Position numbers: made by a program. A DNA stretch of 30,715 nucleotides, taken from a virus (taxonomy: Duplodnaviria > Heunggongvirae > Uroviricota > Caudoviricetes). Numbering within the stretch: the first letter of the stretch is position 1; every line of letters begins with the position of its first letter. Location: the IMG/VR virus record IMGVR_UViG_2703718822_000006; one strand, given 5' to 3'. Of the stretch, positions 6,001 through 9,000 are shown in pieces.

Positions 6001-9000
6001 CTTTAAAAAAGTGCCGGCTTACTGGCTTCATCCGGGGCTGACTTATCTTAAAGTGCGTATTTAGTGGGCCAGGGACAGCGGCTGAATATTTAATATATCC
6101 ATGAACACCAAAATCAAATACGGCCTGTCGGCTGCCGTTCTGGCGCTGATTGCCGCTGGTGCGCCTGCGCCTGACATTCTCGACCAGTTTCTGGATGAAA
6201 AGGAAGGTAACCACACCACGGCATACCGTGATGGCGCGGGTATCTGGACCATCTGTCGCGGTGCCATTCTGGTGGATGGTAAACCTGTCGTCCCGGGCAT
6301 GAAGTTGTCGAAGGAGAAATGCGACCAGGTTAACGCCATCGAACGTGATAAGGCGCTGGCATGGGTGGAGAAAAACATCAAAGTGCCATTGACCGAACCC
6401 CAGAAAGCGGGGATCGCGTCATTCTGTCCGTACAACATTGGTCCCGGTAAGTGTTTCCCGTCGACGTTTTACAGACGAATTAATGCTGGTGATCGCAGGG
6501 GAGCATGTGAGGCGATTCGCTGGTGGATTAAGGACGGTGGCAGAGACTGCCGTATTCGTTCAAACAACTGCTACGGTCAGGTATCCCGTCGTGACCAGGA
6601 GAGCGCGCTGGCGTGCTGGGGTATCGACAGATAAGCAGAATATTTTGCTGAAAAATAAGGCATGGCCACGCGGGCGGATAACATGAAATCCTGCGAACTG
6701 GCGAAACGTAAGTGAATAAAAGTAAAAACCCCGTTTGTTGGCAGCAAGCGGGGTTTTGTTTTTATGGCAGTAAGCTATGGGAGGCTGCCTTGATTGATTT
6801 TAGCAAACTGATTAGGGAGTTGCGACTCATGATTAGTCAATTACCAAACTGGAAATTTTTGCTGGTCTGGAGCATCCCTTTTTTATGGGTAGTATCCCAG
6901 TTAATTGTGGCAATTAAGGGGTAGCTATGTCAGACAAACTCATAACGCCGGCAAAGGTCCTGTGTGTGATTGTCGGTATTTCATTTTCACTAATGCTGGT
7001 TGCTCTTTTTCTGTCCCTCGCCTGGGTGATGTTGTCTTCGTCGGGGCTGCTGGGGTGACAGTGACTGATGACATCAGCAGAGCGCTGGCTTTTGCTATTA
7101 AGTGGGTGGCTGTTGGTATTGCTGTGTCTCCGATGCTGTATGGGCTGGCAAAACTGGTCATTGCGCTGAAATCGTGAACTTTAAAAAGATGAGTGCTGAA
7201 CTTATTCGGGCAATGGCATTTGCCATTCGTATTGTGGCCATTGCTGTTCTGGTCTGGGCAATCCGTTGGTGGTGATATGAACCGTGTTCTGTGTGTGGTG
7301 ATTATTGTCCTGCTGGTAGCCTGTGGTGTGCTTAGTCTGGGGCTGAATCATTACCGCGATAACGCCATCACCTACAAAGCGCAGCGCGATAAAAAAGTCA
7401 GTGAGCTGAAACTGGCGAATGCCACTATTACTGACATGCAGCAGCGCCAGCGAGATGTCGCTGCGCTTGATGCCAGATACACGAAGGAATTAGCCGATGC
7501 GAGAGCTGAAATTGAAACTCTGCGCGCTGATGTTGCCGCTGGTCGTAAGCGCCTGCGGGTCAACGCCACCTGCCCCGGTACCGTGCGTGAAGCCACCGGC
7601 ACCTCCAGCGTGGATAATGCAACCGGCCCCCGACTGGCAGACACCGCTGAACGGGATTATTTCATCCTCAGAGAACGGTTGATGACAATGCAGAAGCAGC
7701 TGGAAGGGGCGCAGGAATATATCCGCACTCAGTGCCTGAAATAAGTTTTGTTGATGCGCCGTATCGTCGCTGTATTCCCTCATTAACAGAGACCGCAGCC
7801 CGACAGGGAGACTCCTCTGCGCGAGTGTGCGGGGATAATCAAAAACGATACACACCGGGGTTTACCGCGTAAACGGAGCGCGGCGTTGTCCCCTCATAGT
7901 CGCCTGTCCGGTGCGATGGTGGAAGAAATCGGGCTTTATTGCAATTGATAATCATTATCATTTTGGCGGGTCCTTTCCGGCGATCCGACAGGTTACGGGG
8001 CGGCGACCTCGCGGGTTTTCACTATTTATGAAAATTTTCCGGGATCCATGTCCGGTTTCCCTGCAAGTTAACTATATGAAAAATATAAAAACAGGCTTTC
8101 CGTGAACCGGACATGCGCAAAAAATGAACATGTAAACCGGACATGACCGGTTTTGTGTTGATTGTGAGGTGAGAGTTTTTGCGAGGTGAGGAGTGGCTAC
8201 CCAGACTGAAGTTGCCAGGCATTTAAGTCTGACCGACCGCCAGCTTCGCAGATTGCAGAAATTACCGGGTGCCCCGGTCTCGAATAAGCGAGGACAACTG
8301 GATCTGGATGCCTGGCGTGATTTTTACATATCGTATCTGAGGAGAAGTAAAAACGATGTGCCTGATGGCGATAGCGAAGAAGACTATGAAGAAAAGTTAC
8401 TTATTGCCAGATGGGAACTGACATCAGAACAGGCCGTTACACAACAGCTAAAAAATGAGGTGTCAAAAGGAAAACTGATTGACACCGGATTCTGTATTTT
8501 TGCCCTCAGCAAGCTGGCGATGGCATTGTCCAGTACGCTTGATTCTATTCCGTTATCCATGCAGCGACAGTTCCCGGATTTAACGCCACGTCATATTGAC
8601 CATCTGAAAACCCTTATTGCGAAGGGCGCAAATCAGTGTGCGCGGGCAGGGGATAAATTACCGGATTTGCTGGATGAATATATCAGAGCAACAACTGAAT
8701 AATATGATGGCTGCCGTTTCGGTTGCGCTGCAGCCCCTGGTCAGGATTGTGCCGATGACGGCAGTTGAATGGGCTGATCAAAATTATTATCTGCCTAAAG
8801 AATCCTCATACGGTGACGGCGAATGGAAAACGCTGCCGTTCCAGATCGCCATCATGAACAGTATGGGGAATGATCAGATCCGCACTGTTAATCTGATTAA
8901 ATCTGCCCGTGTTGGCTATACAAAGATGTTGCTGGGGGTGGTCGGGTATTTTATTGAGCATAAATCCCGAAACAGTCTGCTTTTTCAGCCCACGGATTCT

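Follow-up and report, generated by a model that had tools for sequence, protein, structure and literature searches.

In the lysis cassette of phage lambda there is no gap between the endolysin gene R and the spanin gene Rz. In P2, the membrane protein LysA is reportedly encoded between the endolysin gene K and the spanin genes lysB and lysC, and is thought to be an antiholin; it comprises about 140 amino acids (aa) with four predicted transmembrane segments, is non-essential, and has been proposed to tune the timing of lysis. A protein of a different kind, the moron product gp15 of HK97, is said to block the entry of DNA from superinfecting phages. Here we report on the R–Rz interval of a virus of the class Caudoviricetes (IMG/VR record IMGVR_UViG_2703718822_000006; the window denotes the whole stretch of 30,715 nucleotides (nt) that was analyzed), which holds four very small open reading frames (ORFs), ORF1 to ORF4, hereafter o1 to o4. 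Comparative data make them well supported as genuine genes coding for proteins of 28–44 aa in this window, and we tentatively propose that the products are accessory inner-membrane microproteins of the late operon that may modulate lysis timing.

The likeness to P2 LysA lies in a membrane protein gene being set between endolysin and spanin genes; the proteins encoded here, however, show no Pfam-level similarity to it, are 28–60 aa in length with one hydrophobic helix, and come in shuffled sets. In Mu, the "releasin" gp25 is a 99-aa DUF2730 protein with an N-out/C-in topology and a 73-aa acidic cytoplasmic domain (PMC9239132). Like the proteins studied here, it is a small membrane-tethered protein encoded a few genes downstream of an endolysin of the signal-anchor-release (SAR) type, and it affects lysis without being a holin; yet the small proteins have the opposite predicted topology and no such domain, and the Enterobacter version of o1 accompanies a GH19 endolysin. 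A releasin assignment was rejected given the lack of a DUF2730 match, the length of 28–60 aa and the positive charge on the N-terminal side. Candidate roles as holins and spanins fared no better: the former lacks a holin-family match and the hydrophilic charged C-terminal domain (the tails have 0–3 residues), with a PF04971 holin already present in the window, and the latter lacks a periplasmic domain (at least 60 aa) and an L-x-x-C lipobox, with Rz/Rz1 lying directly downstream. P22-like phages carry a fast-changing "ant moron" with sieA (PMC2629481). The block resembles such morons as a set of fast-changing, variable accessory genes, including ant and small membrane proteins, placed between essential late genes, and the filling of the R–Rz gap indeed varies among otherwise collinear phages. 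Classical morons, however, are expressed in the lysogen from their own promoter and end in a terminator on the downstream side, whereas this block is tightly coupled to Rz: its terminator lies upstream, there is no consensus plus-strand promoter and no terminator follows o4. The type I toxins Hok, Ldr, TisB, Ibs and Fst are comparable in size, hydrophobicity and possession of a single helix, but here no antisense RNA, own promoter or family match was found. Neither the short nor the full-length forms match any family in Pfam (at E <= 1 and E <= 0.001), NCBIfam or PADLOC (E <= 1). Likewise, neither the peptide strings nor the RefSeq accession numbers had a match in the literature searched, and the ORFs are not mentioned in a survey of Shiga-toxin (Stx) phage lysis cassettes, a spanin survey and a preprint on the Enterobacteriaceae microproteome.

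Table 1. Features of the R–Rz interval and of the surrounding late region, in window coordinates.
Feature	Coordinates	Strand	Remarks
ORF1 (o1)	6790..6924	+	44 aa from TTG (most likely start); phrog_6632; N-terminal amphipathic and C-terminal transmembrane helix
ORF1 from its ATG	6829-6924	+	31 codons
Shine-Dalgarno GGGAGG of o1	6779..6784	+	read from the sequence; 5 nt before TTG 6790
ORF2 (o2)	6927..7058	+	43 aa, ATG; AAGGGG 5 nt before ATG; phrog_4906; in 276 phage records
ORF3 (o3)	7055..7177	+	40 aa; GTG in GTGA overlap with o2 stop; phrog_1115, 3246, 4493
ORF4 (o4)	7189..7275	+	28 aa, ATG; short o3 paralog, no clear Shine-Dalgarno; phrog_4493
Bidirectional intrinsic-terminator hairpin with A- and T-tracts	6725..6767	.	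scan match, 15 pairs
Lysozyme R	6101-6634	+	PF00959, E 1.4e-24
Rz i-spanin	7277..7744	+	PF03245, E 4.5e-51; begins 1 nt past o4 stop
Rz1 o-spanin, within Rz	7497..7682	+	PF06085, E 1.7e-21
Holin S	5288..5503	+	class II (phage 21 type); PF04971, E 9e-33
186-aa ORF between holin and lysozyme	5504-6064		GTG start right after holin stop; phrog_1085 (unknown function)
Q antiterminator	4-531
AraC-family gene	1091-1804
tRNA-Met/Arg/Arg	1833-2084
SASA esterase	2577-4568

The interval between R and Rz measures 642 nt, where the original prediction had about 640 bp, and the distances between the four plus-strand ORFs are exactly those it gave: 2 nt, a GTGA overlap, 11 nt and finally 1 nt to the ATG of Rz. 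It had also taken this packing as an argument for real genes. Packing by itself, however, is mildly unusual and weak as evidence: the same ORF coverage arises in 192 of 5000 dinucleotide-preserving shuffles (3.8%), and at least four chained ORFs in 71 of 5000 (1.4%). Hence, we judged gene status on comparative data, drawn from 80 viral contigs gathered through Rz together with phage records and contigs from other species, in which divergent copies were compared codon by codon with Nei–Gojobori estimates of the ratio of non-synonymous to synonymous substitution rates (dN/dS). For the transmembrane part of o1 the ratio is 0.165 in frame, as against 0.8–2.3 in the shifted frames; for o2, in many pairs with 74–92% nucleotide identity, it is mostly 0.1–0.6 in frame and about 0.4–5, with stops, when shifted. 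The o3 values are 0–0.44, with shifted frames at about 0.15–1.8 where calculable and changes too few to separate the two. The comparison of o4 with its full-length form gives 0.21–0.28 in frame and 0.8–2.0 shifted, and that of the paralogous core of o3 and o4 gives 0.29 and 1.3–4.7, respectively. Over all comparisons, the shifted frames yield about 0.5–5, apart from isolated lower values, and most of them contain stops. In relatives as low as 62% in identity, o2 still measures 43–44 aa, none of the 44 loci with arrangements of types A (that of the window) and G has a break in any of the four ORFs, and the substitutions among type A loci are mostly synonymous in the o3 frame. Thus, a check of frame conservation and dN/dS across relatives, as the original prediction had called for, finds the named frames under purifying selection and kept in divergent relatives, and it is this comparative evidence that makes the status of the four ORFs as protein-coding genes well supported. 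Its accompanying worry, that a hydrophobic alternative frame in o3 might betray an artefact of composition, can be laid to rest: in this rejected 33-codon ORF (7068..7169, plus strand) every substitution is non-synonymous and non-conservative, with o3-synonymous changes reading as L to R, L to S and C to Y, and one locus (L111) has a stop there.

The four proteins fall into three families, namely o1, o2 and the paralogous pair o3/o4. Their best 19-residue Kyte–Doolittle means are 2.2, 2.9, 1.9 and 2.2 for o1 to o4, respectively. Of the single transmembrane helix predicted earlier for each, those of o1 and o2 are convincing, but those of o3 and o4 are less certain because Lys or Arg residues lie inside the hydrophobic cores. 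The net charge N-terminal to the hydrophobic segment is +2 in o1 and +4 in full-length o3 and o4, and the C-terminal tails past the helix are listed for o1 to o4 as KG, none, KS and RWW. RefSeq already holds o2, a 51-aa o3 and o4, and sometimes a 70-aa o1, as hypothetical proteins (WP_001043230.1, WP_001280935.1, WP_042004856.1 and WP_032140280.1), and the PHROG profiles that they match (o1 1.3e-12, o2 4.5e-21, o3 6.4e-25, o4 3.8e-6) are all of "unknown function". The start calls differ between these catalogs, with the 70-aa o1 running across the terminator and the 51-aa o3 beginning at a CTG.

The earlier lengths of 31, 43, 40 and 28 codons are correct as coordinates, but o1 most likely starts upstream at TTG 6790 and would thus have 44 codons. 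Homologs from nine other genera have a GTG start at the same codon, behind AAGGGAGAAC, and the first 14 residues, xDFSKLIRELRxM, form the best-conserved stretch of the family. The AlphaFold model (predicted local distance difference test score, pLDDT, 82) places helices at 4–16 and 21–43 with a break at QLPN. ATG 6829 corresponds to the invariant Met14 and has AGGGAG 9 nt upstream; the equivalent (A/C)GGGAG, made of rare Arg codons, lies 9 nt before Met14 in 10 of 11 homologs. The synonymous divergence of o1 is 0.24 in codons 2–14 as against 0.80 in codons 15–43, with a ratio of non-synonymous to synonymous differences (pN/pS) of about 0.4 in both segments. The low synonymous divergence of codons 2–14 points to an extra constraint at the nucleotide level, which could be a second, internal start at ATG 6829 yielding a 31-aa form. 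The 70-aa version of o1 called by the Prokaryotic Genome Annotation Pipeline (PGAP; from GTG 6712) was rejected, as it would cross the terminator hairpin and shows no protein-level conservation of its first 26 codons outside E. coli.

As for the o3/o4 pair, the shared motif RA(L/M)AFAI(K/R) and the comparison with other arrangements, which have a 60-aa o3 (MEKYKRILLRLTMKNGLELKAP then VTDD...) and a 50-aa o4, indicate that o3 and o4 of the window are paralogs and N-terminally shortened versions of proteins of 50–60 aa, without about 20 N-terminal residues of the full forms. That the short o3 begins at the GTG at 7055 finds support in an independent ant-o2-o3-o4-Rz locus (L112), where an ATG takes this place and overlaps the o2 stop as ATGA; the o2-o3-o4 block of this kind behind ant has the same junction and is about 7–12% diverged, with all three ORFs intact. 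Naturally short forms are common, such as the 38-aa P0048, which is found on 56 contigs. We also observed an 8-codon mini-ORF, MGREVLSL or MCREVYSL, ahead of full-length o4 in E. coli (mini-ORF in L074, about 90–115 nt before the Rz ATG) and of full-length o3 in Salmonella (mini-ORF in L106, 2975-3003); its stop and the GTG start of the next gene overlap as GTGA. Within it lies a hairpin of 5 bp (AGGGA...TCCCT), with conserved stems and differing loops, that would mask the downstream Shine-Dalgarno sequence; the mini-ORF looks like a translational-coupling switch.

A hairpin leader unites much of this set. The intrinsic terminator that had been placed at 6726–6763 was recovered (Table 1), with a stem at 6725–6757 of 15 pairs, six of them G-C, followed by GTTTTTATGG, and it is the strongest terminator-like site in 5000–8300. 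It is kept in 15 loci from nine genera, for which RNAalifold gives 13 pairs with compensatory changes in 6 of the 13. In the leader, an A-tract is followed by the hairpin AAA(A/G)CCCCG...CGGGG(T/C)TTT and a T-tract, after which come a conserved spacer, about 35 nt long with AAGGGAGAAC at its end, and the start codon; the leader precedes o1 in nearly every genus, as well as full-length o3, full-length o4 and the divergent o1 of E. coli. The hairpin is real, and it is part of the small-gene module and not of R alone. A scan of the plus strand of 5000–8300 for consensus promoters found none, and an Rfam scan of 5000–9000 at E <= 1 gave no match. On the simplest reading, the hairpin would shield the small genes and Rz from lysogen transcription, with only Q-modified polymerase reading through; such insulation leaves unexplained the same hairpin in Mu-/P2-like baseplate operons, which are not known for antitermination. 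Side by side with this, the roughly 90 nt from the R stop to the hairpin (6635–6724) are conserved across E. coli arrangements with variable patches, and partly in Salmonella (GGCGGATAACAC.AAATCC). The segment 6635–6800, terminator hairpin included, folds better than 200 of 200 shuffles (z = -2.99); 6635–6724 could be a structured 3' untranslated region or a small RNA with its end at the terminator, though without an Rfam match.

We then find that the filling of the R–Rz gap is mosaic, with six arrangements among 78 R–Rz intervals: o1-o2-o3-o4, as in the window (type A; 41 loci); divergent o1 alone (21); full-length o4 alone (6); o3 followed by divergent o2 (4, one copy of which is broken and followed by a methyltransferase-like insert); ant followed by short o1, o2, o3 and o4 (3); and full o3 followed by o4 (3). 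The final small ORF ends 1 nt short of the Rz ATG (TGGTGGTGAnATG) in almost all arrangements, with type C (o3-o2) having a gap of 8 nt, and o2 directly precedes two different types of Rz. Larger cargo in the same gap points to a general hot spot for recombination and insertion. Among such inserts we noted a P22-type antirepressor (PF10547) in L112, an ORF with a DPPY motif like that of DNA methyltransferases in the L077 interval at about 495–1425 (by eye), and an annotated hypothetical ORF of 231 aa in L003 (1790-2485), taken as antirepressor-like. Type A copies are at least 99% identical in 581 genomes, and across 5426 complete E. coli genomes o1 is found in 892, o2 in 1702 (with as many as 11 copies in one genome) and o3/o4 in 1779, roughly 6000 copies in total. 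The classic Stx phages, among them 933W, phi24B, Min27, Stx2 phage I and the O104:H4 phages, have ant in this gap and behind it an o2 homolog that often lacks annotation; the o2 start either overlaps the ant stop or comes shortly after it. Thus, 933W has an intact 43-aa o2 homolog between ant and Rz (AF125520.1 27438-27566; L085 2501-2629), and many of the 276 matching phage records have nothing annotated at this site. Named small proteins of K-12 were rejected as positional homologs, as its Qin prophage has no small genes between rrrQ and rzpQ.

Beyond E. coli, relatives of o1 are present in at least 10 genera, including Salmonella, Enterobacter, Citrobacter, Klebsiella, Providencia, Brenneria, Izhakiella, Pantoea, Symbiopectobacterium and Serratia. 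In Enterobacter and one Citrobacter, o1 lies between a GH19 endolysin, which has no obvious SAR-type N-terminal segment by eye, and overlapped spanins, in cassettes whose holins are unrelated to that of the window; this led us to reject a specific link of o1 to SAR endolysins. In C. braakii, o1 sits before an Rz-like gene, and in Salmonella it is a full-length o3 that lies between the lysozyme and Rz. A profile search with o1 against 1.84 billion representative proteins returned 37 clusters, all of 24–86 aa, and no link to a larger characterized protein. In all three families, the majority of copies have an endolysin gene on one side and a spanin gene on the other.

These observations can be assembled into the following tentative scenario. 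The genes would probably be silent in the lysogen, since no promoter lies between the terminator and them, and would be expressed once Q-modified RNA polymerase passes the terminator late in lytic growth. We suggest that o1 and o2 are translated from their own Shine-Dalgarno sequences, and that o3, o4 and perhaps Rz are translated by coupled termination and reinitiation. The products are predicted to insert in the inner membrane with the N-terminus inside and the C-terminal helix across it, where they might serve to modulate the final stages of infection while being dispensable and interchangeable; this is the least-supported step. Their most likely role would then be to tune when, or how sharply, the system of pinholin, SAR lysozyme and spanin fires. 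The recurrent position between endolysin and spanin genes in unrelated cassettes, the tight junction with Rz and the precedent of P2 LysA make this function in lysis a possibility that we favor, if guardedly. Several findings pull in the other direction. The case for lysis is one of position, and the same gap takes the unrelated ant and a methyltransferase-like ORF. In Citrobacter sp. CFNIH2 (L096 3880-4200), o1 lies in tail genes just upstream of a gpJ-like tail-tip gene, in Pantoea and Serratia (L101, L104) between baseplate genes, and an o3-like tandem pair occurs at a prophage end after a tail-fiber gene (L109). The endolysins and holins adjoining o1 are mutually unrelated, which, with the tail-gene sites, argues against a partner-specific role. 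The supplements of a ribosome-profiling study of strain Sakai, which used uninduced cells, contain no match. At the level of the genes themselves, the short o3 and o4 of the window have dN/dS values of 0.44 and 0.60 on 6–9 substitutions, for which neutrality is not statistically excluded; o1 is broken by a nonsense codon in 4 of 21 type E loci, L077 and L078 carry frameshifts, and a frameshifted o3 variant (P0056) is on 33 contigs. Broken copies are nonetheless a minority, as expected for prophages.

An unlikely, though by no means negligible, alternative is that the genes are moron-type cargo unrelated to lysis, coding for membrane microproteins that act on a conserved host target in superinfection exclusion, after the model of HK97 gp15 or P22 SieA, or in counter-defense, with the gap being a tolerated site of insertion. 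The occurrences in tail and baseplate genes and at a prophage end would fit such cargo, as would the patchy presence and shuffling of the families and the company of ant, which recalls the ant moron of P22-like phages. The unrelatedness of the neighboring lysis proteins likewise speaks for a target in the host over a partner from the phage. In L096, moreover, terminator-like hairpins flank o1 on both sides, with a promoter-like TTAGCA-16-TATATT upstream (by eye), which is the classical moron layout, unlike the window. Against cargo of this kind, the window offers no promoter and has a strong terminator just upstream, making the lysogen expression needed by classical exclusion unlikely here; PADLOC matches none of the proteins, and most copies keep to the endolysin–spanin position. 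It is more improbable that only o1 and o2 function here, with o3 and o4 being truncated leftovers of recombination that remain open because the arrangement is young. The missing N-terminal residues, the lack of a recognizable Shine-Dalgarno sequence before o4, the dN/dS values based on few changes and the circulation of frameshifted o3 variants would agree with this, as would the near-identity of type A copies, which leaves little time for decay; yet the independent block behind ant is diverged and intact with a canonical ATG for o3, natural short forms are common, and type A changes are mostly synonymous in the o3 frame.

Still less probable is a relay of ribosomes to the start of Rz, replacing the R–Rz overlap of lambda, in which the peptides would matter little. 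The nearly invariant 1-nt spacing to Rz (TGGTGGTGAnATG; 8 nt in type C) and the tight chaining of the ORFs speak for a relay, but the amino-acid sequences are conserved across genera even where no Rz follows, the dN/dS values are below 1, and a 155-nt gap with a terminator after R already breaks it. Moreover, GGTGGTGA can itself serve as the Shine-Dalgarno sequence of Rz; the idea that the RWW C-terminus is a mere ribosome-binding site for Rz was in turn rejected, as o1 relatives without a downstream Rz end in RWW too. A type I toxin–antitoxin-like module, with hydrophobic toxin(s) held by an antisense RNA, had been entertained in the original prediction and is now highly improbable. The peptides are small and hydrophobic, and the one promoter-like site in 5000–8300 lies on the minus strand (6933 to 6904; CTGACA-18 nt-CACAAT with a TG extension, 9 of 12 matches), facing the bidirectional terminator such that transcription from it could yield an antisense RNA to o1 about 175 nt long. 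This weak site is all that the suggested look for antisense promoters on the minus strand yielded, however, and the count is below chance (1 observed against 2.9 expected in shuffles); it straddles the o1/o2 junction and is missing from most arrangements, neither Rfam (E <= 1) nor the Hok, Ldr, TisB, Ibs and Fst families in Pfam provided a match, and the genes sit in a late operon and lack their own promoter.

The reading as lysis-timing modulators may also be given a bolder, and rather improbable, form, in which the hairpin, the spacer of about 35 nt with its strong ribosome-binding site and the opening 14 codons constitute a mobile late-gene cassette, with o1 and o3/o4 being dual-start lysis regulators. 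Such a unit, without a promoter and insulated by the terminator, may carry microprotein genes from one late-operon site or phage type to another across Enterobacterales. For o1 as well as for o3/o4, a conserved pair of starts may yield a long and a short form, the short one from an internal Met that has a Shine-Dalgarno sequence made of rare Arg codons. This would recall the dual-start logic of holins and antiholins, and lysis timing could be set by the two isoforms jointly. As a separate observation, in Salmonella (L109 2856-3168 and L110 165-528) two terminators at a prophage end precede two o3/o4-family paralogs in tandem, of 47/64 aa and 55 aa, and a DUF1353 gene comes next; the recurring tandem pairs of this family may form heteromers.

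Turning to the wider setting, the window covers the late region of an E. coli prophage of the lambdoid type, and its segment 6600–7300 is 100% identical to O55:H7 CB9615, O103:H2 12009 and further genomes. The ordered late genes, namely Q, an AraC-family gene, three tRNAs, a SASA-type esterase, the holin, the 186-aa ORF, R, the small ORFs, Rz/Rz1 and terminase, identify the surroundings of the small ORFs as the lysis cassette of a Q-dependent late operon. R has the N-terminus MNTKIKYGLSAAVLALIAAGAPAP, which is weakly hydrophobic and SAR-like (the SAR call being made by eye). The 186-aa ORF has no significant Pfam match; its relatives are named "YdfR family" or "hypothetical" in RefSeq. The layout of 1–4568 is that of the late region of Stx phages, with merely about 490 nt at the usual site of stx, and thus the prophage looks like an stx-negative relative.

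The sequences themselves were already catalogued in PHROG and RefSeq without a function. What is new is that the genes form three families and occur in shuffled arrangements, that they share a covarying hairpin leader and possibly have dual starts, and that Stx phages contain unannotated copies. For annotation, this means that o1 is to be called from the TTG or GTG after the hairpin and o3 from the GTGA or ATGA overlap, and that o2 is to be added to records of the 933W type. These microprotein genes are present in about a third of complete E. coli genomes, and Stx phages have them in their lysis cassettes, where lysis timing sets both the phage burst and the release of Shiga toxin. If they do tune lysis, they would add a level of regulation that intensive study of this system has missed, and, should the dual-start cassette hold, a new class of lysis regulators in Shiga-toxin phages. 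If they have another role in the membrane, they would instead be a set of phage microproteins that is compact, widespread and amenable to experiment.

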